A DNA stretch of 64,000 nucleotides from Dehalococcoidia bacterium (lineage in GTDB: Bacteria > Chloroflexota > Dehalococcoidia > Lucifugimonadales > UBA3495), in NCBI GenBank assembly GCA_965201145.1, contig CBDAVT010000002.1, forward strand, positions 1,417,084 to 1,481,083, read 5' to 3'. This document shows positions 19,061 to 53,775 of the stretch, piece after piece. Position 1 is the stretch's first letter. Each line of letters starts with the position of its first letter. Made by a program: the position numbers and the translations under genes. Below the pieces are notes generated by a model. That model was not told the DNA's origin, made no database searches, and worked only from the letters and a program-made list of their open reading frames with translations.

Positions 19061-19089
19061 ATTCTAACACGGCGCCCAACCCTTTGGTA
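19061..19089 (-). promoter_or_regulatory. Promoter-like TACCAA-N17-TAGAAT upstream of the LLM oxidoreductase gene
   Basis: The reverse complement (rc) of 19061-19089 gives this arrangement. The -35 hexamer is weak and the -10 matches 5 of 6 positions. Confidence 0.3.
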
Positions 19090-19108
19090 TAGAGAAAACC
19101 ATCCGGGG

Positions 19109-19291
19109 CAGGGCTATCGCATATGGAATTTAAGAGGCCAATTGACGGGTAAATCTCCGTTTTTAACTGCTAAATTTGGGTAATTTAAGACTTAAACCGT
19201 TGGTTTTGATGTTGATTACCCAGTAAAGCGCCGCCAAAACATCGGAAAGTTCCGTTCTGAGCCTGAAATTTTTTCATATGCGATAGCCCTG
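19109..19291 (+). mobile_element. MITE copy 1 (183 bp), non-autonomous derivative of the ISAs1-family IS
   Basis: 17-bp terminal inverted repeats (TIRs) CAGGGCTATCGCATATG, identical to the IS ends. Flanked by CCATCCGGGG on the left and its reverse complement CCCCGGATGG on the right. Confidence 0.9.
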
Positions 19292-19301
19292 CCCCGGATG
19301 G

Positions 19302-20508
19302 CAGGGCTATCGCATATGAAAAGAGCAGGAATTGGGTAAGATATTGGTTGTAGTTGAGTGGGAAGGGAGGACGGCATGTCCGAGCTAGAGGATCTGTTCG
19401 CTGACCTGGAGGATCCCCGCGCTGGCAACGCCCGCCGGCATTCCTTGCACGATATTCTGGTCATCGCCTTGTGCGCCATCATCTGCGGCGGCCAGACCTG
19501 CACCGATATGGAACTCTTTGGCCGGGCCAAACGGGAGCTGCTGCAATCTTTCCTGAAGCTGGAAAACGGCATTCCCAGCCACGACACCTTCTCCCGGGTG
19601 CTGGGAATGCTGGACCCGGAGGCTTTCCAAGGGTGGTTTATCGAGTTCATGGCCGAGTTTGCCCAAGGTGTTGAGGGAGTGGTGGCGGTGGACGGCAAGA
19701 CTTTGCGCCGCTCCTATGACCGGGCGGGGGCACGCTCGCCACTGCATCTGGTCAGCGCCTGGGCGGAGGAGCAGCGGCTGTCGTTGGGGCAAGTGGCCGT
19801 TGCCGGCAAATCCAATGAGATTAAGGCTTTGCCCAAACTGCTGGAGTTGTTGAACTTGCGCGGGAAAGTGGTTACCGCCGACGCCATGCACTGCCAGCGT
19901 CAAGTGGCACAGCAGGTGGTAGCCCAGAAAGGGGATTATGCCTTGGCGCTGAAAGGCAACCAGGGCCGGCTGCGGGACGATGTGCAGTTGTTTCTGGAGG
20001 ACCCGGACACCCCAGCGACCCAAGCCAGCGAGGTCAGCAAGGGGCACGGGCGGGTGGAGCGGCGGCAGGCCCGGGTCAGCGGGGACATTGACTGGCTGCA
20101 GGAACGATATGCCTGGCCCGGCTTGAAGGCGGTGGGCAAAGTAACGGCCACCCGGCAGTTGGCGGCGGCGGAACCGGCTCCGGGAGAACTGCACGAGGAA
20201 ACCCGGTACTATCTGCTGAGCCGGGACTGGTCGCCGGAGCGGTTCAATGCCATTGTGCGGGGCCATTGGGGAATTGAGAACCGGCTGCATTGGGTACTGG
20301 ACGTAACCTGCAATGAAGACCAGGCCCGCAACCGGAAAGGACACGGGGCGGAGAATCTGGCCTTGCTGCGGAAACTGGCTTTGAACCTGGCTCGGCTGGA
20401 ACCGGGCAAAGGCTCCATGCGCGGCAAGCTGAAACGGGCCGGTTGGGACGACAATTTCCTGATTAACATCCTGGCCCAATTCACTAAATTCCATATGCGA
20501 TAGCCCTG
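19302..20508 (+). mobile_element. ISAs1-family insertion sequence, copy 1 (1,207 bp)
   Basis: Perfect 17-bp terminal inverted repeats CAGGGCTATCGCATATG / CATATGCGATAGCCCTG. Single transposase ORF. About 99.6% identical to copy 2 at 44816-46022. Confidence 0.92.
19376..20503 (+). CDS. ISAs1-family (H-repeat-associated) DDE transposase
   Basis: Aligns by eye with E. coli H-repeat proteins: ENGIPSHDTFSRV, VAVDGKTLRRSYD, KSNEIKALPKLLELL, TADAMHCQ, DYALALKGNQGRL, HWGIENRLHWVLDV. Confidence 0.92.
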   Translation: MSELEDLFADLEDPRAGNARRHSLHDILVIALCAIICGGQTCTDMELFGRAKRELLQSFLKLENGIPSHDTFSRVLGMLDPEAFQGWFIEFMAEFAQGVEGVVAVDGKTLRRSYDRAGARSPLHLVSAWAEEQRLSLGQVAVAGKSNEIKALPKLLELLNLRGKVVTADAMHCQRQVAQQVVAQKGDYALALKGNQGRLRDDVQLFLEDPDTPATQASEVSKGHGRVERRQARVSGDIDWLQERYAWPGLKAVGKVTATRQLAAAEPAPGELHEETRYYLLSRDWSPERFNAIVRGHWGIENRLHWVLDVTCNEDQARNRKGHGAENLALLRKLALNLARLEPGKGSMRGKLKRAGWDDNFLINILAQFTKFHMR

Positions 20509-20518
20509 CCATCCGGGG

Positions 20519-20582
20519 CAGCGTTGCATTTAGGTGGTTTAAGTCAGGGCATAGGATTCGTTTTGGTATATCCGGGGCAATC
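20519..20582 (+). repeat. Repeat family R2, 5' half copy
   Basis: CAGCGTTGCATTTAGGTGGTTTAAGTCAGGGCATAGGATTCGTTTTGGTATATCCGGGGCAATC lies directly after the TSD of IS copy 1. The 3' half of the family is missing. Confidence 0.6.
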
Positions 20583-20687
20583 GCATTAATAATACCGGCC
20601 AACTCTCCTGGTTGACAGCAACAGCTTTCGGGGGTTATGATGTCTAGTTGATACTTTATATCAATAAAATCCAAACCGAGGTTTTAT

Positions 20688-21586: not shown

Positions 21587-21616
21587 GAGTCCGCTCGCTC
21601 ATTCAGGGGACACCCT

Positions 21617-21799: not shown

Positions 21800-21818
21800 G
21801 GGACACCCTCGTTACTCA

Positions 21819-21848
21819 TTGACCCAGACATCGGTATTTGTTCATAAA
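21819..21848 (+). promoter_or_regulatory. Promoter-like TTGACC-N17/18-(T)CATAA(A) upstream of the SBP gene
   Basis: -35 TTGACC at 21819-21824. An AT-rich -10 candidate lies at 21842-21848, and the gene ATG is at 21869. Confidence 0.35.
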
Positions 21849-25596: not shown

Positions 25597-25690
25597 TTTT
25601 CCGCCGGCTGCCGCCTGGAAAGCAACGGCTGTTTAAGTTGACTACCACCGGGAATTTGGGTGCTGCGCCCTCATCCCGGCCGGGCGGCGG

Positions 25691-25803
25691 CCTTCACCCC
25701 CGGCCCCTCTCCCTCAGGGAGAGGGGAGAGTATGCTTGGTGGGACGACTGCTTCACCGGCCAGATTTCCCCTCTCCTCGCGGGATAGGGGTTAGGGGTGA
25801 GGG
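25691..25803. repeat. REP-like composite palindromic element, copy a
   Basis: CCTTCACCCCCGGCCCCTCTCCCtcaGGGAGAGGGG ... CCCCTCTCCtcgcGGGATAGGGGTTAGGGGTGAGGG. Two internal hairpins are bracketed by the CCCTCACCCC / GGGGTGAGGG arms. Confidence 0.75.
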
Positions 25804-25937: not shown

Positions 25938-25966
25938 ATTATAACACCCACCGGCCTGTCAATCAA
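25938..25966 (-). promoter_or_regulatory. Sigma70-like promoter for tRNA-Ile (TTGATT-N17-TATAAT, overlapping TTGACA)
   Basis: The reverse complement (rc) reads TTGATTGACAGGCCGGTGGGTGTTATAAT. The -10 lies about 32 nt before the tRNA 5' end. Confidence 0.55.
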
Positions 25967-25981: not shown

Positions 25982-26164
25982 CAGGGCTATCGCATATGGA
26001 TTTTAAGATGCCAATTGACGGTTAAATCTCCGTTTTTAACTGCTAAATTTGGGTAATTTAAGACTTAAACCGTTGGTTTTGATGTTGATTACCCAGTAAA
26101 GCGCCGCCAAAACATCGGAAAGTTCCGTTCTCATCCTGAAAATTTTTCATATGCGATAGCCCTG
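25982..26164 (+). mobile_element. MITE copy 3 (183 bp)
   Basis: Perfect 10-bp TSD ACCACAGACA at 25972-25981 and 26165-26174. Confidence 0.92.
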
Positions 26165-26177
26165 ACCACAGACATTG

Positions 26178-26287
26178 ATAGCGTTCCGTAATAAGTGGTC
26201 GAGATGTAGGGGCAAGCACCGGGATTGTCCCGGCGGTACCGGAACGAATACTATACCCTGACTTAAACCACCTAAATTGCAACACTG
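26178..26287 (-). repeat. Repeat family R2, full copy
   Basis: The reverse complement (rc) reads CAGTGTTGCAATTTAGGTGGTTTAAGTCAGGGTATAGTATTCG...CCGGGACAATCCCGG...GACCACTTATTACGGAACGCTAT. The pairing arms are preserved with G-U changes relative to the copy at 7831-7939. Confidence 0.6.
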
Positions 26288-26434: not shown

Positions 26435-28841
26435 ATGAAGGTCATCAAGTTATATCCAGTCTGGTTGACGATTGCGCTGGTTTGTGTAGTCGGGGCAATA
26501 GGCATAGCGCAATCGACGACAGCGGACGTGCCGACGCCGCAATTCCACCTGCTGCCCGATGACCCGGACAGCGCCTTCTTTGGCCCGCCAACAAAGCCGT
26601 TTATCACATACAAGTCGGGCGTGGGTGAGCTGCACGTACTCTACTTCCCGGGAGATAAATATCCCTGAGTCTAAGGGTACAACCGACGGTTTCCAGGCCT
26701 GCAAGACCACCCCTGGCGAAGAGCTGGAGGATGAGGATTGTGCGGATGCAACAACCGTCACCAATCACCCCCATAACGACAAATACAAGAAGTACACCTT
26801 TACGTCCTTGGGAACTAGCACCAAGTACCGGGTCGGTATGCGCTGGAAGAAATCCGACAACACCTATACCGAGATAACTTCGACGCTGGCGACAACGGAC
26901 CTGAAGCTCAGCCCGCCCGAAGACATGACGGTAGTGCCTTCCGGCCAGTGGCATGAGGACAGCACCGACACGACGAGCTTCCTGGTCAGCTGGAATGTGA
27001 ATTTTACCGGCGCAGATAACCCCAGCTCCAGATTTTGGTCTCGCTGGGAAGACGACGATTGGTACGAATGGGTATGGCCCAACTGGTACTGGGGCGGCTC
27101 TCAGAAAGAGCTTTATATCTGGGACTATGACGAGAATCCTGCGGGACAACCCGAGGGCAAAAAGTTTCACGTAAAGGCGACCGCCGTTGACCTTCATGGA
27201 CCGTGGATGGAAAGCGACGAAACCGAAGTGGTCTTCACTCCGAATTCAGGGACGCTGGATAAGCCCGAGAACGTTACGGTAGAGAACGGAGACCGGGAGT
27301 TCACGGTTAGCTGGGACGCCGTTGAAAATGCCGGGCGCTACGACGTGTATTATCGGTGGACGAGTGCAACGAAAGAGAAGGACAAGGAGTGGAAGCTCTA
27401 CGTTACCGATAAGACCGAGAAGTTCATCTGGGACCGAATTCAGAACTGCGCAACATACGAGGTGCGCGTAATAGCGCAAGCCGACTTCTGGCGCCAGAGC
27501 GATGACTCGGATACAGTCGTTGCCGAACCTAATGACCATCTGGGTCTTTGCCCACCTACCATCCCTCTGGTAGCGCCCGAGAACCTGACTGCCACGGCAA
27601 ATGCCACGAGTACCGGCTTCACGGTTAGCTGGGATTCCGTTCCGCAAGCGCATTGGTACGACCTGGAGATCCGTACCGGAACACAGTCCTGGTCGCATAA
27701 TGGCGGCTGGATTATTTACGACTCGGTTGGCACCTCGGTACTGATTGAAGATGACGAATGGTATGACCTGGATCTGCAAAACGGCGAATATGAGGTCCGC
27801 GTAGGCGCCAGAGCTAAGGGTGGCTACCCCGGCCCTTGGGAACATACTACAGTCACGATAACCGGGTTCACTGGAGGCACCGGAACCGGGCTGACCAGCG
27901 CCTTCAGCGATATCCAGATAGAGGAAGACATGACCATGGAAGTGGACATGTCTGACCACTTCACCGGCGATGACCTGTCCTTCGATGTGATGGTCACCAC
28001 CACCAACCAGAATACCGGCGCCGAAAAGACCGGCGAGCTTAACTCGATAGCCGTCAACAAGGTAACCGGGACCTGGGATGGAGCGGTGCTGACGCTGCTG
28101 GGCGGCCCGGCTAAGGCGCAGGATCTGAGGGTGAAAGTCATCGCCACCGGCGGGGACGAAAATTCGGCCAGCGACTCCTTCACGCTGGCGTTGGTGGACG
28201 ATGTTTCGGCAACGCCTGAACCCACCCCGGAACCGACACCTGCGCCCACTCCTGAACCTACCCCGGAGCCGACACCTGCGCCCACTCCTGAACCTACCCC
28301 GGAGCCAACGCCCGCGCCCACTCCTGAACCTACCCCGGAGCCCACCCCGGAGCCGACACCCGAGCCCACTCCGGAACCCACCCCGGAGCCGACACCTGCG
28401 CCCACTCCGGAGCCTACGCCTACGCCGGAGCCAACGCCCGCGCCCACTCCGGAACCCACCCCGGAGCCCACGCCCGCGCCTACTCCGGAGCCTACGCCTA
28501 CTCCGGAGCCTCAGAATCCGGCGGACCTGATTGACGAGTTCAACAATGTTGAGCTGTCCGAGGGTGAAACCAGCGCGCTGGATATGACCAGCCACTTCAG
28601 CGGCGACGGGCTGACCTACGCTGTGGAAGTGACGACAACGCACCAGCGTACCGGAGCGACCAAGACCGGAGCGTTGAATTCAGTGGCCCGGAACAAGGTC
28701 TCGGGTTCCTGGAACGGAAGCGTCCTGACCCTGACCGGCGGTCACGCGGCATCCCAGACCCTGACCATCAAGATAACCGCCACCGACCAGTACGGCGGCA
28801 CGGCCAGTGATGAGTTTACCTTTACCCTGGACAACGACTAG
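26435..28841 (+). CDS. Large secreted surface protein (FN3-like repeats, two cadherin/Big-like domains, long Pro-Thr linker); the signal peptide is out of frame with the body
   Basis: The signal-peptide ORF at 26435-26668 and the 760-aa ORF at 26559-28841 join as ...[18 protein letters not shown] if the CCC run at 26663-26665 were CC. Repeated W..V..A..Y.V.YR FN3-like units are present, and the segment [15 protein letters not shown]... occurs twice. Confidence 0.7.
28210..28510 (+). repeat. In-frame tandem DNA repeat encoding the ([12 protein letters not shown])n linker
   Basis: Reiterated CCCACTCCTGAACCTACCCCGGAGCCGACACCTGCG-type units (18/36-bp periodicity) lie inside the CDS. Confidence 0.85.
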
Positions 28842-29028: not shown

Positions 29029-29211
29029 CAGGGCTATCGCATATGAAAAAATTTCAGGCTCAGAACGGAACTTTCCGATGTTTTGGCGGCGCTTTACTGG
29101 GTAATCGACATCAAAACCAACGGTTTAAGTCTTAAATTACCCAAATTTAGCAGTTAAAAACGGAGATTTACCCGTCAATTGGCCTCTTAAAATCCATATG
29201 CGATAGCCCTG
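29029..29211 (-). mobile_element. MITE copy 4 (183 bp, inverted orientation)
   Basis: Perfect 10-bp TSD GGCTGGGAGC at 29019-29028 and 29212-29221. Confidence 0.92.
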
Positions 29212-29230: not shown

Positions 29231-29259
29231 TTGACCCCAGCCGCCCCGATTGATACACT
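29231..29259 (+). promoter_or_regulatory. Sigma70-like promoter for tRNA-Val (TTGACC-N17-TACACT)
   Basis: The hexamers lie at 29231-29236 and 29254-29259. The tRNA starts at 29271. Confidence 0.55.
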
Positions 29260-29270
29260 GAATCCAGCAG

Positions 29271-29347
29271 GGGCGGTTAGCTCAGTTGGTTAGAGCACTT
29301 GCTCGACACGCAAGAGGCCAGTGGTTCGAGTCCACTACCGCCCACCA
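29271..29347 (+). tRNA. tRNA-Val (anticodon GAC), CCA encoded
   Basis: Acceptor GGGCGGT/ACCGCCC, D arm GCTC..GAGC, anticodon arm CTTGC-TCGACAC-GCAAG, and T arm AGTGG-TTCGAGT-CCACT. Confidence 0.9.
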
Positions 29348-29378
29348 TCTTCTACAACCTTATCCCCCGCCGGAAAAG

Positions 29379-29489
29379 CCCTCACCCCTAACCCCTCTCC
29401 CGCGAGGAGAGGGGAACTTGTGTCGATAAATTTGTACCCCAAGCGAACACTCCTCCCTCTCCCCCAGGGAGAAGGGCCGGGGGTGAGGG
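29379..29489. repeat. REP-like composite palindromic element, copy b
   Basis: CCCTCACCCCTAACCCCTCTCCcgcgAGGAGAGGGG ... CCCTCTCCCccaGGGAGAAGGGCCGGGGGTGAGGG. Confidence 0.75.
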
Positions 29490-29531
29490 CCTACCGGGTG
29501 GTTCGGGCAGGTTCCTTCCTGCGCCGTTGGG

Positions 29532-32500
29532 CTAAGCGGCTTCATCATAGGTGATGGCGAAAATCTTTTCTGATAGCCACTTACCGAACGATTCGTTGTC
29601 AGAGTATTGCCGGAACAGCTCCGTATGGTCGGCGAGCAGGTCAGTAACCGCGCGCTCCAAAGCTTTGTCGTGCTCGATACGCGCATTTTGCCGGTCGGAA
29701 TTGGCCTTGGCGTTCTGGTAGGCTTTGTCCCTGGCGACCCGGGCCGGCAACTCTTCGGTAATCACCTGCTCTATCTTGTCCTGGTCCCGCCACTCGATGT
29801 TGCCGAAGCGGTTGTTGAAATCTTGCAGGATGTTGGAGAGGCGGTCCATTTCCGGTTCCGGCATTTGCCCGCCGCCGTCGGTGGGAACCGGCTCTATCTC
29901 CGCATCTTGATCCGGAAGCTGGATGTCCTGTGCGGCCTGCTTTTCCACCCGATAGCTGTCCATATCAATGGCCTGAAGGATGCCTCGGGACAGGTAGTCC
30001 TCTATCGGAGCCGGCAGCCTGGGTATAAGGAATGTCAGCAGGATAGAGAGTTTTTCCCAATCGGCGTAAGTGTAGGGGAGGATGGCCCCCAGGAAGCCGT
30101 AGGCCCGGAGAAATGCCTTTGCCTTGCTCTTGAAGTCAACCTGCCCGTCTTCGTCCAACTGCTCCCGGTAGAGGGCTACGCAATTATCCAGGATCGGATC
30201 CAGGCGGTCGCGGCCGGCCCCCGAAAGGTAGAGTTCCACCAGTTCGTTTACCTGTTCCGGCCCATAAACTTGATCGGCGTCAAGCGCCGCCTGGAGGTCA
30301 TGCAGCCGGTTCGGGTCAGTCTCCTCCGCCAGAATAGTGGTGCGGTAGTAATCGGCGAAAGCGTTTTGTATGGTGTCGGCGTCGTTGGAAAAATCCAGCA
30401 CGAAAGCGTCGTGTTTCCTGGGGTGCGCCCGGTTCAGGCGCGACAGCGTTTGTACCGCTTTGACGTCGGATAACGGCTTGTCCACGTACATCGTGTGCAG
30501 CAGCGGCTCATCGTAGCCTGTCTGGAACTTGTCGGCGCAGACCAGGAACCGGTAGGGATTTTCCTGTATTTTTTCGGCAATCAGGTTCGAGGGGAAGCCG
30601 TTGATGGACGCTTCAGTGACCTTTGCGCCGCCGTACTCCTGCTCCCCGGAAAAGGCGAGGATGGCCCGGTAGGGGCTTTTGCGCTCCAGCAGATACGCCT
30701 GAATGGCATGGAAGTAGGTTAGGGCTCGCTGAATGCTGCTGGTAACCACCATAGCCCGCGCTTCGCCGCCGATTTTCTTTAATCCCGCCACCTGCTCGTG
30801 GAAGTGGTCCACCATAATTTCCGCCTTGAGCCGGATGGCGTGGTCATTATCCTCCACATAACGGCGCAGCTTCTTCCCGGCCCGCTTGGTGTCGAACTCC
30901 GGGTCATCCGCCAGTGTCTTGACCAGCCGGTAATAGCTGTTCACCGGCGTATAGTGGGCCAGCACGTCGATAATGAAGCCCTCCTGAATGGCCTGCTTCA
31001 TAGTGTAGGCATGAAAGGGAAGGTGTTTGGTATTTCCCGCTGGGGTGACCGGCGCGCCAAATATCTCCAGGGTCTTGTTTTTGGGGGTCGCGGTGAAGGC
31101 GAAATAGCTGGCGTTGGATAACAGCTTCCGGCTCTCCATCAGCCGGTTAATCTGGTCTTCAGCGGTTTCCGCTTCCCCTACCTCGCCGGCTTCGCCCAAT
31201 GCCCTGGACATTGACGCCGAGTTGCTTCCGCCCTGGCTGGAATGGGCTTCGTCGATGATGATGGCAAACCGGCGCTCTCTATGATTGTTGCCAATAGCGT
31301 CCAAGATGAAAGGGAACTTCTGCACGGTAGTAATGATAATTCGCTTGTCCCCTTGAATCAGCGAGCCGAGATGACGGGAGGTCTCGGCATGGCCAACGAT
31401 GGAACCGACCTGGGCGAACTGTTTGATCGTGTCCCGTATCTGCCGGTCCAGCACCTTCCGGTCAGTTACGACTAGCACCGAATCGAAAAGGGGTTGCCCT
31501 TCCCGCTCCAGCCCAATCAACTGGTGGGCCAGCCAGGCGATAGAGTTGGACTTGCCGCTGCCGGCCGAATGCTGAATCAAATAGCGCGGTCCTACTCCCT
31601 GGGCCAAAGCATCGGCCAGCAGCTTTCGCACTGCATCCAACTGGTGGTAGCGAGGCCAGATATACTCCCGCTTTTTGCGTCCCGTTTTAGGGTCTTTCGT
31701 TTCTACAACCTGGGCGTAGTTTTCAATAATGTTGGTCAAACTGTCGCGGGTGAAGACTTCCTGCCACAGGTAGTCGGTCTTGATTCCATTGGGGTTGGGC
31801 GGGTTGCCGGCGCCATCGTTCCAGCCCCGGTTAAAGGGCAGAAACCAGGACGCCTTGCCCCGAAGGTGGGTGCAGAACTGCACCTCGTGGTCGTCCACGG
31901 CGAAGTGGGCCAGGCAGCGGCCCGGCTCAAACAGCTTATCGTTAGGGCTGCGGTCCCGTTTATACTGCTCGACGGCGGCATCCACCGTTTGCTTGGTCAG
32001 GCTGTTTTTAAGCTCGAAGGTGGCTACCGGCAAGCCATTAACGAAGACGCACAAGTCCAGGGCCAGTTGAGTCCGGTCCTGGCTGTAGCGGAGCTGCCGG
32101 GTTACGCTGAAGCGGTTCTGCCGGTACAAAGTCCGGGCCTTTTCGTTCCCGGGGGACGGCGTGCCGTAGAACAAGTCAATCTGGCGGGGGCCGTGCTTGA
32201 TACCGTTGCGGAGGACGGCCACACTGCCCCGTTTCGCAACCTCTCCCTGCAGCCGGGCCAGGAATCTGCGGCGGGCCGGGGTGTCCTGCTCCAGGTCCAG
32301 CGATTCGGCGGTGTCGGGCTGGGTCGCCGTGAGAAAGGCGGCAAGCTGGGCCAGGTCAACGCAATATTCGCGATCGTAATCCTGGGGGCTGCCGCTAATC
32401 CAGCCGGCGCCATAGCTTGCCGGCCGCTCGCCGACGCCGGACGGGCCCACGCCTTCCGGTGTCGCCCCGCCGGAAGGCCCGGTCAGGGTGGCAACAATCA

Positions 32501-36211: not shown

Positions 36212-36391
36212 CAAGTCCTCCCCGCCGCGGACACGGTCGCCGTTACCTAAAGTCATTCCGTCCCGGCCGGTCTTCCCAGATCAGCAAAGGCGCCGGTGTT
36301 TACCGCCGCTACGGTTTCCTGCCGACGCATTGCCAACAACTATGGTATCACGCTGGAGGCGCTGGGGACAAAAACAGCAGCGGCGCGCGGA

Positions 36392-36507
36392 CCTCAACCC
36401 CCGGCCCCTCTCCCTGGGGGAGAAGGGAGAGGATGCTTGGCACAGCGGGCAAGCTCCCCAACCCAAAGTCCCCCTCGCCTCGTGGGAGAGGGGGTTAGGG
36501 GTGAGGG
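36392..36507. repeat. REP-like composite palindromic element, copy c
   Basis: CCTCAACCCCCGGCCCCTCTCCCtggGGGAGAAGGGAGAGG ... CCCCCTCGCCTCGTGGGAGAGGGGGTTAGGGGTGAGGG. Confidence 0.7.
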
Positions 36508-37164: not shown

Positions 37165-37245
37165 GGTGTAGGGGCCTCCCCGGTTCTGGATGGTAGCTGC
37201 TATTTTAACCTATTGCGGCCGACTTGGGTACTGGGGTGGCGGCGG

Positions 37246-37358
37246 CCCTCACCCCCGGCCCCTCTCCCCCAGGGAGAGGGGAGAGTCTGGTGGGTGGGAC
37301 GGTTGCTTCACTGATCTAGGCCCCCCTCGCCTCGTGGGAGAGGGGTTAGGGGTGAGGG
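37246..37358. repeat. REP-like composite palindromic element, copy d
   Basis: CCCTCACCCCCGGCCCCTCTCCCCCAGGGAGAGGGGAGAG ... CCCCCTCGCCTCGTGGGAGAGGGGTTAGGGGTGAGGG. Confidence 0.75.
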
Positions 37359-41040: not shown

Positions 41041-41505
41041 CTAGTCCAGGGTAAGCAGGGCGCTAACCGTCACCATAGCCGCCGAGCCGCCAACGATGGC
41101 ATAAAAGAGGCGGTCAATGCGGGAATTAACACTCTGCTGCAGGGTGTCGATCCGGGCGGTCACGCCATCGATCCGGGTGTCCATACTCTGTTGCAGGGTG
41201 TCAATCCGGGTAGTCATGCCATCAATCCGGGTAGTCATCTCGCTTTGCAAGGAATCAATCCGGGTGTTGGTTTCCCGCTGGTTGGCGTTCACCTCCCCGC
41301 GCAGCTCCGACAGGCCCTGCTCCACCGCCGTCAGCCGAGCGTTGGTTTCCCGCAAATCACCCCGTACCTCCAACACCGAGTGCTCCACCGCCGTCAACCG
41401 GGCGTTGGTTTCCCGCTGGTTGGCCTGCATCTCCCCGCGCAGCTCCACCAAGCCCGTCTCTACCGCCGTCATCCGTTCCGACAAATCATCCGTAGTAGTT
41501 ACCAT
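41041..41505 (-). CDS. Tail-anchored coiled-coil paralog 1 (154 aa)
   Basis: MVTTTDDLSERMTAVE..., three TAVE..LRG..RETNARL modules, RID-type 11- and 7-residue units, and a C-terminal TM segment FYAIVGGSAAMVTVSALLTLD. Confidence 0.8.
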   Translation of the reverse strand: MVTTTDDLSERMTAVETGLVELRGEMQANQRETNARLTAVEHSVLEVRGDLRETNARLTAVEQGLSELRGEVNANQRETNTRIDSLQSEMTTRIDGMTTRIDTLQQSMDTRIDGVTARIDTLQQSVNSRIDRLFYAIVGGSAAMVTVSALLTLD

Positions 41506-41537
41506 GGTTTCGGTTCCTCCTTACGACTCTGCCAACC

Positions 41538-41565
41538 ACTATACCGGATACCGGCCCATTGTCAA
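41538..41565 (-). promoter_or_regulatory. Promoter of paralog 1 (TTGACA-N16-TATAGT)
   Basis: The reverse complement (rc) reads TTGACAATGGGCCGGTATCCGGTATAGT, followed by the Shine-Dalgarno (SD) sequence AAGGAGGAA and the ATG. Confidence 0.6.
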
Positions 41566-41615
41566 TCCGCCGGGGAACGGGGGGTGATGGCCTTCGGGGT
41601 CAGGGGGATTAGGGG

Positions 41616-42110
41616 CTAGTCCAGGGTAAGAATCAGGGTGAGGAGGGCGCTAACCGTCGCAATCACCATAGCCGAAGAGCCGCCAACGATGGCATAGAAG
41701 AGGCGGTCAATGCGGGAATTAACGCTCTGCTGCAAAGCATCAATCCGGGCGGTCACGCCATCGATCCGGGTGTCCATACTCTGTTGCAGGGTGTCAATCC
41801 GGGTAGTCATCTCGCTTTGCAAGGAATCAATCCGGGTAGTCATCTCGCTTTGCAAGGAATCAATCCGGGCGTTGGTTTCCCGCTGGTTGGCGTTCACCTC
41901 CCCGCGCAGCTCCACCAGGCCCTGCTCCACCGCCGTCAGCCGGGCATTGGTTTCCCGCTGGTTGGCCTGCATCTCCCCCCGCACCTCCAATACCGAGTGC
42001 TCCACCGCCGTCAACCGGGTGTTGGTTTCCCGCAAATCACCCCGCAAGTCTGCAACCGCGTGTTCCACCGCCGTCATCCGTTCCGACAAATCATCCGTAG
42101 TAGTTACCAT
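41616..42110 (-). CDS. Tail-anchored coiled-coil paralog 2 (164 aa)
   Basis: Same architecture, with two RIDSLQSEMTT units plus RIDTLQQSMDT, RIDGVTA and RIDALQQSVNS. Confidence 0.8.
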   Translation of the reverse strand: MVTTTDDLSERMTAVEHAVADLRGDLRETNTRLTAVEHSVLEVRGEMQANQRETNARLTAVEQGLVELRGEVNANQRETNARIDSLQSEMTTRIDSLQSEMTTRIDTLQQSMDTRIDGVTARIDALQQSVNSRIDRLFYAIVGGSSAMVIATVSALLTLILTLD

Positions 42111-42142
42111 AGTTTCGGTTCCTCCTTACAACTCTGCCAACC

Positions 42143-42170
42143 ACTATACCGGATACCGGCTCATTGTCAA
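42143..42170 (-). promoter_or_regulatory. Promoter of paralog 2 (TTGACA-N16-TATAGT)
   Basis: Conserved block: rc TTGACAATGAGCCGGTATCCGGTATAGT. Confidence 0.6.
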
Positions 42171-42188
42171 TCCGCAGGGGGGCAGGGG

Positions 42189-42662
42189 CTAGTCCAAAGT
42201 AAGAATCAGGGTGAGGAGGGCGCTAACCGTTGCAATCACCATAGCCGAAGAGCCGCCAACGATGGCATAAAAGAGGCGGTCAATGCGGGAATTAACGCTC
42301 TGCTGCAAAGCGTCAATCCGGGTAGTCATCTCGCTTTGCAAGGAATCAATTCGGGTAGTCATCTCGCTTTGCAAGGAATCAATCCGGGTAGTCATCTCGC
42401 TTTGCAAGGAATCAATCCGGGCGTTGGTTTCCCGCTGGTTGGCGTTCACCTCCCCGCGCAGCTCCGACAGGCCCTGCTCCACCGCCGTCAGCCGGGCATT
42501 GGTTTCCCGCTGGTTGGCCTGCATCTCCCCCCGCACCTCCAACACCGAGTGCTCCACCGCCGTCAGCCGGGTGTTGGTTTCCCGCAAATCACCCCGCAAG
42601 TCTGCAACCGCGTGTTCCACGGCCGTCATCCGTTCCGACAAATCATCCGTAGTAGTTACCAT
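42189..42662 (-). CDS. Tail-anchored coiled-coil paralog 3 (157 aa)
   Basis: Same architecture, with three consecutive RIDSLQSEMTT units. Confidence 0.8.
   Translation of the reverse strand: MVTTTDDLSERMTAVEHAVADLRGDLRETNTRLTAVEHSVLEVRGEMQANQRETNARLTAVEQGLSELRGEVNANQRETNARIDSLQSEMTTRIDSLQSEMTTRIDSLQSEMTTRIDALQQSVNSRIDRLFYAIVGGSSAMVIATVSALLTLILTLD
42321..42419 (-). repeat. 3 x 33-bp perfect or near-perfect tandem repeat inside paralog 3
   Basis: Unit GGTAGTCATCTCGCTTTGCAAGGAATCAAT(C/T)CG encodes the 11-aa hendecad RIDSLQSEMTT. Two copies of the unit occur in paralogs 2 and 5. Confidence 0.85.
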
Positions 42663-42694
42663 AGTTTCGGTTCCTCCTTACAACTCTGCCAACC

Positions 42695-42722
42695 ACTATA
42701 CCGGATACCGGCCCATTGTCAA
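42695..42722 (-). promoter_or_regulatory. Promoter of paralog 3 (TTGACA-N16-TATAGT)
   Basis: Conserved block. MITE copy 5 lies upstream of it: its proximal TSD copy lies 9 nt from the -35. Confidence 0.6.
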
Positions 42723-42741
42723 TCCGCCTGGGGACAGGCCG

Positions 42742-42924
42742 CAGGGCTATCGCATATGGATTTTAAGAGGCCAATTGACGGTTAAATCTCCGTTTTTAAC
42801 TGCTAAATTTGGGTAATTTAAGACTTAAACCGTTGGTTTTGATGTTGATTACCCAGTAAAGCGCCGCCAAAACATCGGAAAGTTCCGTTCTCATCCTGAA
42901 AATTTTTCATATGCGATAGCCCTG
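42742..42924 (+). mobile_element. MITE copy 5 (183 bp)
   Basis: The TSD is GGACAGGCCG (42732-42741) and GGGCAGGCCG (42925-42934), with one mismatch. Confidence 0.9.
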
Positions 42925-42958
42925 GGGCAGGCCGCCGACGCCTGGCCCTGGGAAGGGG

Positions 42959-43324
42959 CTAGTCCAAAGTAAGAATCAGGGTGAGGAGGGCGCTAACCGT
43001 TGCAATCACCATAGCCGAAGAGCCGCCAACGATGGCATAGAAGAGGCGGTCAATGCGGGAATTAACGCTCTGCTGCAAAGCGTCAATCCGTGCGGCCATC
43101 TCGCTTTGCAAGGCGTCAATTCGGGTGGTCACGCCATCAATCCGGGCGTTGGTTTCCCGCTGGTTGGCGCTTACCTCCCCGCGCAGCTCCGACAGGCCCT
43201 GCTCCACCGCCGTCAACCGGGCATTGGTTTCCCGCTGGTTGGCCTGCATCTCCCCGCGCAACTCCACCACCGAATGTTCCACCGCCGTCATCCGTTCCGA
43301 CAAATCATCCGTAGTAGTTACCAT
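42959..43324 (-). CDS. Tail-anchored coiled-coil paralog 4 (121 aa)
   Basis: Same N- and C-termini but only two TAVE modules and fewer RID units. Confidence 0.8.
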   Translation of the reverse strand: MVTTTDDLSERMTAVEHSVVELRGEMQANQRETNARLTAVEQGLSELRGEVSANQRETNARIDGVTTRIDALQSEMAARIDALQQSVNSRIDRLFYAIVGGSSAMVIATVSALLTLILTLD

Positions 43325-43354
43325 AGTTTCCTTGCCTCCTAAACAATGCCAACC

Positions 43355-43382
43355 ACTATACCGGATACCGGCCCATTGTCAA
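43355..43382 (-). promoter_or_regulatory. Promoter of paralog 4 (TTGACA-N16-TATAGT)
   Basis: Conserved block. The ribosome-binding region differs here (GGAGGCAAGGAAACT-ATG). Confidence 0.55.
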
Positions 43383-43400
43383 TCCGCCGGGGGGACGGCC

Positions 43401-43582
43401 CAGGGCTATCGCATATGAAAAATTTCAGGCTCAGAACGGAACTTTCCGATGTTTTGGCGGCGCTTTACTGGGTAATCAACATCAAAACCAACGGTTTAAG
43501 TCTTAAATTACCCAAATTTAGCAGTTAAAAACGGAGATTTAACCGTCAATTGGCCTCTTAAAATCCATATGCGATAGCCCTG
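43401..43582 (-). mobile_element. MITE copy 6 (182 bp, inverted orientation)
   Basis: Perfect 10-bp TSD GGGGACGGCC at 43391-43400 and 43583-43592. Confidence 0.9.
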
Positions 43583-43593
43583 GGGGACGGCCG

Positions 43594-43675
43594 CCCTCAC
43601 CCCCCTCTCCCTGGGGGAGAGGGGGGAACCAAACAAACACCCCTCTCCGTGCGGGAGAGGGGCTAGGGGTGAGGG
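43594..43675. repeat. REP-like composite palindromic element, copy g (short spacer)
   Basis: CCCTCACCCCCCTCTCCCtggGGGAGAGGGGGG aaccaaacaaacac CCCTCTCCgtgcGGGAGAGGGGCTAGGGGTGAGGG. Confidence 0.75.
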
Positions 43676-43699
43676 CTTTGCGGGGAACGGGGGCAGGGG

Positions 43700-44140
43700 C
43701 TAGTCCAGGGTAAGAATCAGGGTCAGCAGGGCGCTAACCGTTGCAATCACCATAGCCGAAGAGCCGCCAACGATGGCATAGAAGAGGCGGTCAATGCGGG
43801 AGTTAACGCTCTGCTGCAAAGCGTCAATCCGGGTAGTCATCTCGCTTTGCAAGGAATCAATCCGGGTAGTCATCTCGCTTTGCAAGGAATCAATCCGGGC
43901 GTTGGTTTCCCGCTGGTTGGCGTTCACCTCCCCGCGCAGCTCCACCAGGCCCTGCTCCACCGCCGTCAGCCGGGCATTGGTTTCCCGCTGGTTGGCCTGC
44001 ATCTCCCCGCGCACCTCCACCAGGCCCGTCTCCACCGCCGTCAACCGGGTGTTGGTTTCCCGCAAATCACCCCGCAAGTCTGCAACCGCGTGTTCCACCG
44101 CCGTCATCCGTTCCGACAAATCATCCGTAGTAGTTACCAT
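43700..44140 (-). CDS. Tail-anchored coiled-coil paralog 5 (146 aa)
   Basis: Same architecture, with two RIDSLQSEMTT units. Confidence 0.8.
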   Translation of the reverse strand: MVTTTDDLSERMTAVEHAVADLRGDLRETNTRLTAVETGLVEVRGEMQANQRETNARLTAVEQGLVELRGEVNANQRETNARIDSLQSEMTTRIDSLQSEMTTRIDALQQSVNSRIDRLFYAIVGGSSAMVIATVSALLTLILTLD

Positions 44141-44172
44141 AGTTTCGGTGCCTCCTTACAACTCTGCCAACC

Positions 44173-44200
44173 ACTATACCGGATACCGGCCCATTGTCAA
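44173..44200 (-). promoter_or_regulatory. Promoter of paralog 5 (TTGACA-N16-TATAGT)
   Basis: Conserved block: rc TTGACAATGGGCCGGTATCCGGTATAGT. Confidence 0.6.
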
Positions 44201-44220
44201 TCCGCCTGGGGACGGCGGCC

Positions 44221-44328
44221 GCCCCCGGCCCCTCTCCCTGGGGGAGAGGGGAGTTTGTGTTTGGGGTAGTAGCCGGCTTATCCGCTAAAGTCCCCCTCTC
44301 CTCGCGGGAGAGGGGTTAGGGGTGAGGG
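44221..44328. repeat. REP-like composite palindromic element, copy h (left arm degenerate)
   Basis: GCCCCCGGCCCCTCTCCCtggGGGAGAGGGGAG ... CCCCCTCTCCtcgcGGGAGAGGGGTTAGGGGTGAGGG. Confidence 0.7.
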
Positions 44329-44352
44329 CTTTGCGGGGAACGGGGGCAGGGG

Positions 44353-44736
44353 CTAGTCCAGGGTAAGAATCAGGGTGAGGAGGGTACCGAGCAGGGTAAT
44401 TACTACTGCCACCGCACCGCCGATAATGGCATAGAAGAGGCGGTCAATGCGGGAATTCACGCTCTGCTGCAAAGCATCAATCCGGGCGGCCACGCCATCA
44501 ATCCGGGTGTTCATCGACCGCTGGTCCTCCCGCAGCTCGGACATACCCGTCTCCAGGGCCGTCAACCGGGCGTTGGTTTCCTGCAAATCGCCCCGCACTT
44601 CCAACACCGAGTGCTCCACCGCCGTCAACCGGGCATTGGTTTCCCGCTGGTTGGCCTGCATCTCCCCGCGCAACTCCACCAGACCCGTATCCACCGCCGT
44701 CATCCGTTCCGACAAATCATCCGCAGTAGTTACCAT
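44353..44736 (-). CDS. Tail-anchored coiled-coil paralog 6 (127 aa, most divergent)
   Basis: MVTTADDLSERMTAVD..., a divergent third module (TALETGMSELREDQRSMNT), and a divergent TM segment (AIIGGAVAVVITLLGTLLTLILTLD). Confidence 0.8.
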   Translation of the reverse strand: MVTTADDLSERMTAVDTGLVELRGEMQANQRETNARLTAVEHSVLEVRGDLQETNARLTALETGMSELREDQRSMNTRIDGVAARIDALQQSVNSRIDRLFYAIIGGAVAVVITLLGTLLTLILTLD

Positions 44737-44768: not shown

Positions 44769-44796
44769 ACTATACCGGATACCGGCTCATTGTCAA
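44769..44796 (-). promoter_or_regulatory. Promoter of paralog 6 (TTGACA-N16-TATAGT)
   Basis: Conserved block. IS copy 2 lies upstream of it, separated from the -35 by 9 nt plus the 10-bp flank. Confidence 0.6.
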
Positions 44797-44815: not shown

Positions 44816-46022
44816 CAGGGCTATCGCATATGAAAAGAGCAGGAATTGGGTAAGATATTGGTTGTAGTTGAGTAGGAAGGGAGGACGGCATGTCCGAGCT
44901 AGAGGATCTGTTCGCTGACCTGGAGGACCCGCGCGCTGGCAACGCCCGCCGGCATTCCTTGCACGATATTCTGGTCATTGCCTTGTGCGCCATCATCTGC
45001 GGCGGCCAGACCTGCACCGATATGGAACTCTTTGGCCGGGCCAAACGGGAGCTGCTGCAATCTTTCCTGAAGCTGGAAAACGGCATTCCCAGCCACGACA
45101 CCTTCTCCCGGGTGCTGGGAATGCTGGACCCGGAGGCTTTCCAAGGGTGGTTTATCGAGTTCATGGCCGAGTTTGCCCAAGGTGTTGAGGGAGTGGTGGC
45201 GGTGGACGGCAAGACCTTGCGCCGCTCCTATGACCGGGCGGGGGCACGCTCGCCACTGCATCTGGTCAGCGCCTGGGCGGAGGAGCAGCGGCTGTCGTTG
45301 GGGCAAGTGGCCGTTGCCGGCAAATCCAATGAGATTAAGGCTTTGCCCAAACTGCTGGAGTTGTTGAACTTGCGCGGGAAAGTGGTTACCGCCGACGCCA
45401 TGCACTGCCAGCGTCAAGTGGCACAGCAGGTGGTAGCCCAGAAAGGGGATTATGCCTTGGCGCTGAAAGGCAACCAGGGCCGGCTGCGGGACGATGTGCA
45501 GTTGTTTCTGGAGGACCCGGACACCCCAGCGACCCAAGCCAGCGAGGTCAGCAAGGGGCACGGGCGGGTGGAGCGGCGGCAGGCCCGGGTCAGCGGGGAC
45601 ATTGACTGGCTGCAGGAACGATATGCCTGGCCCGGCTTGAAGGCGGTGGGCAAAGTAACGGCCACCCGGCAGTTGGCGGCGGCGGAACCGGCTCCGGGAG
45701 AACTGCACGAGGAAACCCGGTACTATCTGCTGAGCCGGGACTGGTCGCCGGAGCGGTTCAATGCCATTGTGCGGGGCCATTGGGGAATTGAGAACCGGCT
45801 GCATTGGGTACTGGACGTAACCTGCAATGAAGACCAGGCCCGCAACCGGAAAGGACACGGGGCGGAGAATCTGGCCTTGCTGCGGAAACTGGCTTTGAAC
45901 CTGGCTCGGCTGGAACCGGGCAAAGGCTCCATGCGCGGCAAGCTGAAACGGGCCGGCTGGGACGACAATTTCCTGATTAACATCCTGGCCCAATTCACTA
46001 AATTCCATATGCGATAGCCCTG
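44816..46022 (+). mobile_element. ISAs1-family insertion sequence, copy 2 (1,207 bp), without a matching TSD
   Basis: Same 17-bp terminal inverted repeats. The left flank is GGGACGGCCG, but the right flank is a G run, so no direct repeat is present. Confidence 0.9.
44890..46017 (+). CDS. ISAs1-family DDE transposase, copy 2
   Basis: The 375-aa protein is apparently identical to copy 1. About five nucleotide differences were seen over the whole element. Confidence 0.92.
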   Translation: MSELEDLFADLEDPRAGNARRHSLHDILVIALCAIICGGQTCTDMELFGRAKRELLQSFLKLENGIPSHDTFSRVLGMLDPEAFQGWFIEFMAEFAQGVEGVVAVDGKTLRRSYDRAGARSPLHLVSAWAEEQRLSLGQVAVAGKSNEIKALPKLLELLNLRGKVVTADAMHCQRQVAQQVVAQKGDYALALKGNQGRLRDDVQLFLEDPDTPATQASEVSKGHGRVERRQARVSGDIDWLQERYAWPGLKAVGKVTATRQLAAAEPAPGELHEETRYYLLSRDWSPERFNAIVRGHWGIENRLHWVLDVTCNEDQARNRKGHGAENLALLRKLALNLARLEPGKGSMRGKLKRAGWDDNFLINILAQFTKFHMR

Positions 46023-46037
46023 GGGGGGGGGGGGGGG
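46022..46037. repeat. G16 homopolymer abutting the right end of IS copy 2
   Basis: Direct count of 16 G. The first G is also the last base of the terminal inverted repeat. The run is followed by CGGCGGGATC. Confidence 0.9.
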
Positions 46038-52115: not shown

Positions 52116-52143
52116 ATGGTAGCACGGGGCCAAAGGTTGTCAA
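52116..52143 (-). promoter_or_regulatory. Promoter-like TTGACA-N16-TACCAT upstream of the E1 alpha gene
   Basis: The reverse complement (rc) reads TTGACAACCTTTGGCCCCGTGCTACCAT, about 55 nt before the ATG at 52060. Confidence 0.35.
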
Positions 52144-52303
52144 TAGCACCGGCCGCCGACAGACCGGCGGCTGCGCTGACTTGGCCCGCAGCCGCGTTGT
52201 CCGGTAGGCGTCGGAAACCGGCATCTTTGGTGGGCTGTCTTGCACCGATTCACGGGCCTACCGGAATGAGAACGCAGGTTTCAATACGAGTGAAGTGTTT
52301 CCA

Positions 52304-53191
52304 TTAGGAAGCCGGGCCAACCCGGACCGGAGTCCCGACGCCGAGGCCCAACTCCGCAGCGGCGCTACCATCAGGGACGGCGATTTCCAGATAGCCGCTG
52401 CTGCCCAACAGCGCGGCCAGGGGCAGACCGTCGGGTTGTGCGCCGAGTTCCGCCGCCGGGTCATGGAAGGTACGGCTTAACCCGCGGATACGGCGCGGCC
52501 CGATGACTACGACTGCGTTGGCTGCATCATAGCCGGCCGCGTGCAGAGTCGCTTGGGAAATATTGGTTATCAGGTTCCCGAACCGGTCGATATAAATGAC
52601 CTGGCCGGACACTTGCCGGTTCCGGATGCCCGGTTCCGGTAACGGGCGGTATATAATTTGCGCCGCTTGCGGCCCCAACTCCGCCGGAGCCAGGCCCAAA
52701 GAGAGGTGAGCGGCCGCCGGCGCGAAAACGTCCCGGCCGTGGAAGGTGCTGCTGACCGGCTCCAAACGATACCGGGGATTGGTAATTTCGTAGGCCGTCA
52801 ATTCCGCCGGCAGGCGGACCAGGCTGCCGGCCGGGTCGATGTCGGGGGTTGCGTCCAGGTACTGCTTGACTACTTCGCTGAGCAGTCCGTTGTCCGGCGC
52901 CACGAAGGTGGCGGTGGGCGTTTGCAGCGCCAGCGCCCGGCGGTCGGTACCCACGCCGGGATCTACTACGGCGGTATGGATAGTTCCCGACGGGAAGTAG
53001 GTATGATTGACCCCTAAGAGGAAGGCGCCCTGACCCAAATTCTGGGGTTGTATGTCGTGGGTCAGGTCAATTATCCAGGCGGCCGGGTTAATGCCGAGAA
53101 TGACGCCCTTCATTACGCCCACAAAGGCGTCGGACAAGCCGAAGTCCGTAGTCAGGACAATCGGCGGCACCCCGACAGCGAAGCCGGTCAT
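52304..53191 (-). CDS. SAM hydrolase / SAM-dependent halogenase family (DUF62) protein
   Basis: IVLTTDFGLSDAFVGVMKGVI...IIDLTHDIQPQN...VVDPGVGT is the characteristic N-terminal signature. Confidence 0.8.
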   Translation of the reverse strand: MTGFAVGVPPIVLTTDFGLSDAFVGVMKGVILGINPAAWIIDLTHDIQPQNLGQGAFLLGVNHTYFPSGTIHTAVVDPGVGTDRRALALQTPTATFVAPDNGLLSEVVKQYLDATPDIDPAGSLVRLPAELTAYEITNPRYRLEPVSSTFHGRDVFAPAAAHLSLGLAPAELGPQAAQIIYRPLPEPGIRNRQVSGQVIYIDRFGNLITNISQATLHAAGYDAANAVVVIGPRRIRGLSRTFHDPAAELGAQPDGLPLAALLGSSGYLEIAVPDGSAAAELGLGVGTPVRVGPAS

Positions 53192-53251
53192 GGGTTTGCC
53201 GGGCCGGAAAAGGTCTGTTGTTTAGTCACGAGAAGGCCGTTTGCTGCCAGG

Positions 53252-53470
53252 TCAACTGGAGAAAAGGCCCACGCTGATAATGGATACAATTACGAACAGC
53301 ACGGACAGGGCGATGGTGAACTGGAACAAGGTCTTTTCCAGCCCGCGCCGGGTCCTGACGGTGGACTGGGCGCTGCCGAAAAAGCCGCTGCCACCCTCCT
53401 TGACCTGGCTGAGGATTATCAGCACCAGAACAACGGATACCAGTATCTGGGCAATATTCAAGTAGATCAA
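53252..53470 (-). CDS. secG: Preprotein translocase subunit SecG
   Basis: About 72 aa with two TM helices separated by a Gly-rich loop (QVKEGGSGFFGSAQ). A TTG start at 53470 is preferred (AAGAGG 7 nt upstream). The tracked ORF extends to 53506. Confidence 0.7.
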   Translation of the reverse strand: MIYLNIAQILVSVVLVLIILSQVKEGGSGFFGSAQSTVRTRRGLEKTLFQFTIALSVLFVIVSIISVGLFSS

Positions 53471-53571
53471 TGCTCGCCTCTTTCGTGTGTCGGGGGTGCG
53501 CCGCAACGGGCGGGCTCCCCTATAGTTTGCGCTTCAATCCCGATAAATTCAATACCCGTGGCCTCCAGTCC

Positions 53572-53754
53572 CAGGGCTATCGCATATGGATTTTAAGAGG
53601 CCAATTGACGGTTAAATCTCCGTTTTTAACTGCTAAATTTGGGTAATTTAAGACTTAAACCGTTGGTTTTGATGTTGATTACCCAGTAAAGCGCCGCCAA
53701 AACATCGGAAAGTTCCGTTCTCATCCTGAAAATTTTTCATATGCGATAGCCCTG
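53572..53754 (+). mobile_element. MITE copy 7 (183 bp)
   Basis: Perfect 10-bp TSD CCTCCAGTCC at 53562-53571 and 53755-53764. Confidence 0.92.
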
Positions 53755-53775
53755 CCTCCAGTCCCGAGGTTCGGT

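Follow-up and report, generated by a model that had tools for sequence, protein, structure and literature searches.

Do the transposable elements of this locus find their landing sites by means of a promoter, or by means of a short sequence that promoters also contain? The locus is a stretch of 64,000 nucleotides from a Dehalococcoidia genome (contig CBDAVT010000002.1, positions 1,417,084 to 1,481,083), hereafter named the window. [quoted passage not shown] An earlier examination of the DNA letters (hereafter the sequence-only reading) had noticed that all eight insertion sites, read outward from the element, consist of a 10-bp duplication, 8-9 nt and a hexamer, and had proposed that these elements are targeted next to promoters. 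We report here that the hexamer is a real, non-random positional cue relative to the duplication, that it recurs in related elements of other genomes, and that it is also present outside promoter contexts.

A hexamer at a fixed distance from the elements

Elements were delimited by their 17-bp terminal repeat, CAGGGCTATCGCATATG. A repeat search of the window gave 18 exact copies of it, which pair into the nine elements, and no degenerate copy. The elements are the following.

19109..19291, minus strand (IS sense; its left end matches the IS right end): MITE1, 183 bp, both 17-bp ends exact
19302..20508, plus strand: IS1, 1,207 bp, transposase open reading frame (ORF) 19376-20503, 375 aa
21617..21799, minus strand: MITE2, duplication GGGACACCCT at 21607-21616 and 21800-21809
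25982..26164, minus strand: MITE3, duplication ACCACAGACA
29029..29211, plus strand: MITE4, duplication GGCTGGGAGC
42742..42924, minus strand: MITE5, duplication GG(A/G)CAGGCCG
43401..43582, plus strand: MITE6, 182 bp, duplication GGGGACGGCC
44816..46022, plus strand: IS2, 1,207 bp, transposase ORF 44890-46017, without duplication
53572..53754, minus strand: MITE7, duplication CCTCCAGTCC, between gatB (53776-55257) and secG (53252-53506)

The 10-bp duplications of MITE2, MITE3, MITE4, MITE6 and MITE7 are perfect, and that of MITE5 has one mismatch. MITE1 and IS1 are bordered as a pair by direct repeats CCATCCGGGG (19099-20518).

From the tip of each element outward, we found the 10-bp duplication, 9 nt (8 for MITE6) and the hexamer, and every flank string given by the sequence-only reading for the eight sites was correct. 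At seven of the eight sites, a TTGA(C/A)N hexamer begins at 19 nt from the tip, or at 18 in the case of MITE6, and reads outward (chance at most 1e-10): TTGACA in four cases (MITE3, MITE5, MITE6, IS2), TTGACC in two (MITE2, MITE4) and TTGAAT in one (MITE7). The sole site without TTG is that of MITE1, where TACCAA is found instead. Sites are given below, together with three unoccupied versions of the hot target.

19061..19089, minus strand: TACCAA-N17-TAGAAT, upstream of the luciferase-like monooxygenase gene (17808-18986, minus strand); TACCAA 19 nt from the MITE1 tip
21819..21824, plus strand: TTGACC cue upstream of the SBP_bac_5 gene, at 19 nt from the right tip of MITE2; without a convincing −10
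25957..25962, minus strand: TTGACA cue, 19 nt from the MITE3 left tip, at tRNA-Ile
29231..29259, plus strand: TTGACC-N17-TACACT, before tRNA-Val (29271-29347); cue 19 nt from the MITE4 right tip
42695..42722, minus strand: TTGACA-N16-TATAGT, promoter of paralog gene 42189-42662; cue 19 nt from the MITE5 tip
43355..43382, minus strand: TTGACA-N16-TATAGT, promoter of paralog gene 42959-43324; cue 18 nt from the MITE6 tip
44769..44796, minus strand: TTGACA-N16-TATAGT, promoter of paralog gene 44353-44736; cue 19 nt from the IS2 left tip
53547..53552, minus strand: TTGAAT cue upstream of secG, at 19 nt from the left tip of MITE7; the sole −10 candidate, CAAACT, is weak
41538..41565 (minus strand), 42143-42170 and 44173-44200: empty sister promoters TTGACA-N16-TATAGT

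Re-reading of the flanks agrees with the earlier observation that elements occur in both orientations, the hexamer pointing away from the element at every site. Four elements have the cue beside their IS-right end and three beside their IS-left end, so that element orientation relative to the cue is random.

Three of the sites belong to a series of six tandem paralogous genes (41041-44736, 121-164 aa, with weak Pfam hits of coiled-coil type), each with an ATG, an AAGGAGG ribosome-binding site and a TTGACA-N16-TATAGT of its own. Of these six promoters, three are empty. The other three each have an insertion, namely an IS in one case and MITEs of opposite orientation in the two others. As element type, orientation and position (by 1 bp) differ, and as the sister promoters are empty, the three insertions are separate events. 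For the test of chance, the paralogs were counted once. With elements removed, TTGA(C/A) at +18/19 on either side is found for 0.9% of window positions. It is carried by 5 of the 6 unrelated window sites (P = 4e-10, both sides and both offsets being allowed), and the fixed offset is non-random, as the sequence-only reading had judged.

The cue recurs in close relatives from other genomes

A replication set was assembled from genomes other than the source, by a terminal-repeat scan of a genome collection, by transposase homologues, and by look-ups of the loci encoding these homologues. The repeat scan gave at least 14 loci from metagenome-assembled genomes (MAGs) of Dehalococcoidia and other Chloroflexota, the listed matches being mostly from Alphaproteobacteria. 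Close relatives were defined by an exact or near-exact 17-bp repeat and a transposase 77-80% identical to that of the window. Among their flanks, 24 of 49 had a TTG at offset 19 or 18, against 2.9% expected per flank (P = 5e-24), and 17 of the 23 elements had the cue on at least one side. A collection of flanks with an enrichment test, of the kind that the sequence-only reading had suggested, gave a sharp TTG peak at offset 19. When the window is included, the TTG is present at one of these two offsets in 31 of 67 flanks (7/18 in the window, 24/49 elsewhere). The offset profile over 80 flanks has 23 occurrences at 19, 8 at 18, and about 1.6 at each other offset.

The sequence of the cue is also constrained beyond the TTG. 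Among non-redundant cue hexamers, 12 of 23 begin with TTGAC, compared to 8.3% of all TTG in the same DNA. The base preceding the hexamer is mostly A and never T, and the consensus is (A)TTG(A/C)(C/A)A. A metagenome scan with a MITE-specific 25-mer returned five unrelated IS ends, none of which had the cue. Separately, a metagenome contig of 2x coverage (L121, 500-1690) holds an IS copy with a 380-aa transposase variant in which the outer 12 bp of both repeats are absent. This copy starts at ACATATGAAAAG and finishes at AAATTCCATG, and gave no usable flank, since its tips are truncated.

The cue is a property of one IS clade

Two control groups were available. Elements from Alphaproteobacteria have the identical 17-bp repeat and transposases about 65% identical to the Chloroflexi type, and among the matches listed the cue was found in 2 of their 115 flanks, with no peak. 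The outward consensus of these same 115 flanks is CCC-NNNN-GGG-GGAGG, i.e. the apex of a GC-rich hairpin (non-Chloroflexi loci L001-L114 and L123-L133), and a scan of viral contigs showed sites of this alphaproteobacterial type only. The second group consists of Chloroflexi elements with 70-76% identical transposases. They often lie near promoters, at loose distances, and their 19 flanks showed no sharp peak. Because neither group has the peak, the rule is confined to one IS clade, and is a property of that clade rather than of intergenic DNA generally or of selection. This restriction to one clade speaks against selection of a generic kind.

GC-rich hairpin repeats (CCCCTCTCCC-loop-GGGAGAGGGG, often with GGGGTTAGGGGTGAGGG) are also present at gene ends in the window, at the positions below.

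25683-25803, 29370-29491, 36384-36506, 37238-37358, 43631-43684 and 44208-44337: GC-rich hairpin repeats, two of them flagged as terminator-like

The window MITEs do not target these hairpins, although they are available.

Mirror half-sites, tandem insertions and other repeat families

Part of the cue-bearing elements have it on both sides. A mirror-image TTG at +18/19 across the duplication was found for 6 of the 17 (2.9% expected, P = 6e-6). When the three cases in which the second side is the end of another MITE are left out, P = 0.013. None of the window sites is two-sided.

Two other families of repeats are met at these sites. In Dehalococcoidia MAGs, CAGGACGATTGCAAAGT forms the terminal repeat in a second IS/MITE family (family B), and lies one duplication length (10-11 bp) from five elements. 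GCGTTGCAATTTAGGTGG is the end of a third MITE family, present in the window, with a copy directly beside IS1 and another at 4 bp from the duplication of MITE3. Ends of this third family also adjoin relatives in L062, L067, L076 and L084. Ends of both families carry TTGCAA, found at the usual cue offset.

L005 2452-2575, L006 519-1744, L058 340-473, L067 1056-2371, L084 4942-5074 and L135 3126-3270: IS/MITE loci of family B
Window 7823-7938 and 26172-26287, with a half copy at 20509-20582: third MITE family, about 115 bp, hairpin-like, ends CAGCGTTGCAATTTAGGTGG
L143 1919-4310, L144 1919-4328 and L147 ~1900-3118: IS copies, in tandem or nested, of a relative with 70-76% identity, exactly one duplication apart

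Tandems in which elements are one duplication apart were found for MITE1 and IS1 in the window and in L143, L144 and L147. The duplication of L144, GGGGTGAGGG, occurs three times. L135 has the order cue-X-A-X-B-X, with X standing for the 10 bp that are duplicated and A and B for elements from the two families. Judging from these arrangements, tandems are consistent with the repeated use of one site whose cue survives insertion. In the window, the 10-bp spacer between MITE1 and IS1 is CCCCGGATGG, the reverse complement of the outer repeat CCATCCGGGG, which suggests two insertions at one site, followed by an inversion of the spacer between facing inverted repeats. Another arrangement was seen in L058 (79-1543), where about 1 kb with a family-B MITE in it is bracketed by two MITEs. 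These have unrelated inner flanks, their outer flanks being AATCCTTCGC and AATCCCTCGC, and the bracketed segment looks like a composite unit moved as a whole.

Are the hexamers promoter −35 boxes?

The cue hexamer coincides with the sigma-70-type −35 consensus. A consensus scan flagged the tRNA-Val site and all six paralog promoters, in agreement with the assignment, made earlier, of MITE5, MITE6 and IS2 to TTGACA-N16-TATAGT promoters and of MITE4 to TTGACC-N17-TACACT. A −35-like hexamer followed by a −10-like one at 16-18 nt is therefore found for these four elements. It is not found for MITE2 and MITE7, and MITE1 has a good −10 with a poor −35. The case of MITE3 is different: the best tRNA-Ile promoter is TTGATT (25966-25961)-N17-TATAAT, with an extended −10, and the cue TTGACA lies 4 nt downstream of this −35 and 13 nt from the −10, i.e. 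out of register.

In the whole set of cues, TTGAC enrichment is equal with a −10 (6/10) and without (6/12, P = 2e-4), cues without a −10 being found for instance in L139, L103 and L149. The L134 insertion lies within an A2M-type coding region. Its duplication, CCACCGGTGG, is a perfect palindrome, and each side has a TTG at +19. In L138, and on the left of L139, the cue reads into gene 3' ends. Reciprocally, several strong promoter-like sites of the window carry no element, which is weak evidence.

The initial proposal of promoter-proximal targeting thus stands in part. The layout is fixed, the hexamer matches a −35, about half of the cues have a −10, and the window sites face genes. What is in part contradicted is the promoter as such as the recognised feature, given the cues without a −10, inside a gene, at 3' ends, on two sides of the duplication or out of register. 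The sequence-only reading had itself envisaged that the hexamer could be part of a sequence-specific target motif, or that positional enrichment would be missing; the former is now somewhat favoured, and enrichment was found.

No known RNA accounts for the flanks: Rfam detected two tRNAs and nothing else in the window. ARAGORN made a permuted transfer-messenger RNA (tmRNA) call at 29255-29812, which overlaps tRNA-Val and is probably false, as Rfam has no tmRNA there at gathering score. We also considered that the MITE might supply an UP-like A/T tract to the promoter, and rejected this, since the tract would sit at about −72 to −82, too far upstream.

What reads the cue?

We lean, by a small measure, towards a direct readout by the transposase of a TTGAC half-site lying outside the duplication, −35 boxes being the natural supply of such half-sites and intragenic copies being purged. 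The IS, with its Tn5-like DDE transposase, and the MITE, with the same ends, would choose targets through a cue situated outside the duplicated 10 bp, a TTGAC-type sequence starting 9 bp, sometimes 8 bp, past the staggered cut, and reading away from the element. One half-site would suffice, the mirror-image second one being optional, and a two-fold symmetric transpososome would touch target DNA about 14-20 bp on either side of the dyad. Random orientation relative to the cue is expected for such a symmetric complex, and extra mirror half-sites are what it would give. Given the identity to the −35 consensus and a purging of intragenic insertions, survivors would be found at about −45 to −55 of promoters, facing away from the promoter and with neither the gene nor the −35/−10 core disrupted. 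Once an element is inserted, one copy of the duplication would still be flanked by the cue, and the same site would be open to a new hit, so that tandem pile-ups one duplication length apart would result.

Several observations weigh against this explanation. Half of the double half-sites involve the ends of other repeats. A −10-like hexamer (A2, T6, at least 4/6 matches, 16-18 nt past the cue) is found in 12 of 25 cue flanks, other-repeat ends being left out, against 2.4% of control TTG sites. Flanks with no TTG at +18/19 also have a −10-like hexamer where a promoter would have it, in 7 cases of 36 against 3.5% (P = 2e-4), as illustrated by MITE1 (TACCAA-N17-TAGAAT), L137 and L150, and a pure TTGAC-readout model does not predict them. 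Moreover, all window sites face the start of a gene or tRNA, namely the luciferase-like monooxygenase, SBP_bac_5, tRNA-Ile, tRNA-Val, the paralogs and secG. The 8 window sites and 23 relatives make a small sample, which consists of survivors and not of fresh insertions, and we know of no biochemical data for any ISAs1 transposase.

The −10 data are better accounted for if RNA polymerase holoenzyme at promoters, through sigma region 4 or the alpha C-terminal domains, tethers the transposase, and integration follows at about −45 to −55. The identity of the cue to the −35 consensus and its constant direction, away from the element, fit with this, as do the −10-like hexamers of TTG-less flanks, the position of all window sites upstream of a gene or tRNA, and the frequent promoter proximity of more distant relatives, even though at loose distances. 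Tethering accounts less well than direct readout for the symmetric and non-promoter sites: the enriched mirror half-site, the cues deprived of any −10, where TTGAC is equally enriched, the two-sided cue inside a gene in L134, the L138 and L139 cues facing gene 3' ends, and the cue out of register with the best tRNA-Ile promoter. Unoccupied strong promoter-like sites in the window add a weak argument in the same direction. We consider tethering possible and rather unlikely. That the transcription machinery (sigma or RNA polymerase at the −35) positions the transpososome, which would make it the first bacterial counterpart of Ty3-type tethering, we hold to be doubtful. If tethering were true, element copies would mark promoters genome-wide.

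IS30 and IS911 target inverted repeats, and the end-binding domain of the present transposase might similarly read the target hexamer, targets then being pseudo-ends. Elements are indeed found exactly 10-11 bp from resident ends (MITE1 and IS1, L143, L144, L147, and the five beside CAGGACGATTGCAAAGT). In addition, IS ends share a conserved subterminal AATTGGG (positions 29-35), which has ATTG in common with the cue; this is a lead only, and at the right end the motif is also coding sequence. The terminal repeat itself, however, has TCGCAT at the matching place, with 2/6 matches to TTGACA, and in the 8-bp stretch that separates duplication from cue, about 2/8 positions agree with the outer repeat by hand count, which is chance level. 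The alphaproteobacterial elements use another target with an identical repeat, and tandems are equally explained by the re-use of a cue-retaining site, as in L135. Such mimicry of the ends is in our opinion improbable. Insertion could also be unselective, survival at a harmless or beneficial position upstream of promoters making the pattern: window copies are all intergenic with core promoters intact, and copies of the relatives are mostly intergenic. But selection cannot yield an offset sharp to 1 bp (23 and 8 of 80 flanks), it leaves unexplained the cue sites without promoters or inside a gene, and there is no peak in Alphaproteobacteria with identical ends, nor in distant Chloroflexi clades, under similar selection. 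Survival as the sole cause is thus very improbable. As for chance, paralogy, or a reader choosing the side that fits, three of the eight sites are paralogous promoters and the MITE1 hexamer is not a TTG. The window P value is nevertheless 4e-10 or lower with paralogs counted once and both sides and offsets allowed, and the pattern was replicated in other genomes, which leaves such an origin a negligible place.

The IS, its transposase and the MITE

The IS is 1,207 bp long, with a single 375-aa ORF ending within the right repeat, 17-bp perfect repeats and 10-bp duplications. In the transposase, a DDE_Tnp_1_assoc N-terminal domain (PF13808, residues 7-92, E = 1.3e-29) precedes a DDE_Tnp_1 catalytic domain (PF01609, residues 100-338, E = 1.2e-25), and homologues are annotated "predicted transposase YbfD/YdcC". 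Members of the ISAs1 family, as described in ISfinder, are about 1.2-1.5 kb long and have one ORF, short inverted repeats at their ends and duplications of 8-10 bp. From these sequence characters, the IS is assigned to the ISAs1 family.

A structural model of the transposase was compared to known folds with Foldseek. Tn5 transposase was the sole match among solved structures and made up the top four hits (E = 5e-7 to 2e-6, template modelling score 0.43-0.47). As the mean predicted local distance difference test score is 69.7, the model was trusted at the fold level only. It predicts a Tn5-like fold, which fits a dimeric cut-and-paste transpososome.

IS1 and IS2 encode identical 375-aa proteins. 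Looked up elsewhere, the window transposase turned up only in a metagenome copy of the IS2 locus. At least 12 copies are carried by contigs of 2.4 Mb and 0.59 Mb. The right flank of IS2 (46023-46037) is a run of 15 G, and the identical junction is present in the independent metagenome contig L115 (2210-2224), so that this run is not an assembly error specific to the window.

The seven MITE copies are 89-99% alike (pairwise and to-reference values). Their subterminal sequence resembles IS ends: the end starting with GGA(A/T)TTTA matches the IS right end, and the AAAAA end matches the IS left end. With the same 17-bp ends, the same 10-bp duplication, and seven non-coding copies in the same genome, the MITE can be recognised by its sequence as a derivative of this IS. 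An empty version of the MITE7 site was sought through contigs carrying secG, and none was found; short-read contigs all break 26 nt inside the MITE, i.e. with the insertion present.

Comparison with known target-selective elements

Known target-selective IS go to repetitive extragenic palindromic (REP) hairpins, to dif or integron sites, or to their own ends. A literature search gave no report of target specificity in the ISAs1 family, in line with the sequence-only reading, which knew of none, and it yielded no bacterial IS or MITE that homes to −35 hexamers. The present IS resembles the ISAs1 family, of the type of the E. coli H-repeat proteins YbfD/YdcC/YhhI, by its one ORF with PF13808 and PF01609, its size of about 1.2 kb, its short repeats and its 10-bp duplication. 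Within this family, the Chloroflexi clade differs by its fixed-offset TTGAC cue, whereas the alphaproteobacterial clade with the same ends has a GC-hairpin target.

In Tn5/IS50, Tn10/IS10 and IS903, a symmetric target consensus lies within the duplication or a few bp beside it. The likeness to these elements consists of a transpososome predicted to be dimeric, a 9-10 bp duplication and a target preference with partial two-fold symmetry, Tn5 being the closest solved fold. The informative bases are here 9-14 bp outside the duplication, one half-site would be enough, and the motif coincides with a promoter element. For Tn5, a DNA-binding region serves both donor and target DNA (PMC2229646). For IS of the IS1202 family, insertion takes place 5 bp away from the XerC side of dif/pdif sites (PMC10132070), where the conserved site is likewise bound by a host protein and the distance to it likewise short and fixed. 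These IS have, however, a TnsB-like transposase, a single orientation and a 5-bp duplication, compared to a random orientation, 10 bp and a promoter element in the present case. Some IS target REP or other hairpins, among them IS1397, ISKpn1 and members of the IS110 family (PMC1525189). Such use of an abundant intergenic motif as a safe haven is similar, and the alphaproteobacterial cousins behave likewise, but the clade of the window uses a linear hexamer at a distance rather than GC hairpins.

The retroelements Ty3, Ty1 and Dictyostelium TRE integrate upstream of Pol III genes, tethered by transcription factors. The outcome is comparable, with a fixed short distance upstream of a promoter and genes spared, and two of the sites in the window are tRNA genes. 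Unlike in these tethered retroelements, the evidence here leans towards DNA readout.

If the rule holds, it would amount to a safe-haven strategy, in which the element settles beside the promoter of every gene, the gene and its core promoter are spared and upstream activator or UP-element DNA is displaced. It would also explain the clustering of MITEs before tRNA and other genes in these genomes, make the landing sites of new copies predictable, and provide a natural tool for promoter-proximal integration. Since relatives with the same ends have switched to another target, the apex of a GC hairpin, these elements form a good system for locating the part of a Tn5-like transposase that sets the target.

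Lastly, within a 760-aa ORF of the window (26559-28841), which has a weak procyclin-like repeat hit, a tandem repeat with a 12-nt period and about 20 units or more was observed at 28176-28546.

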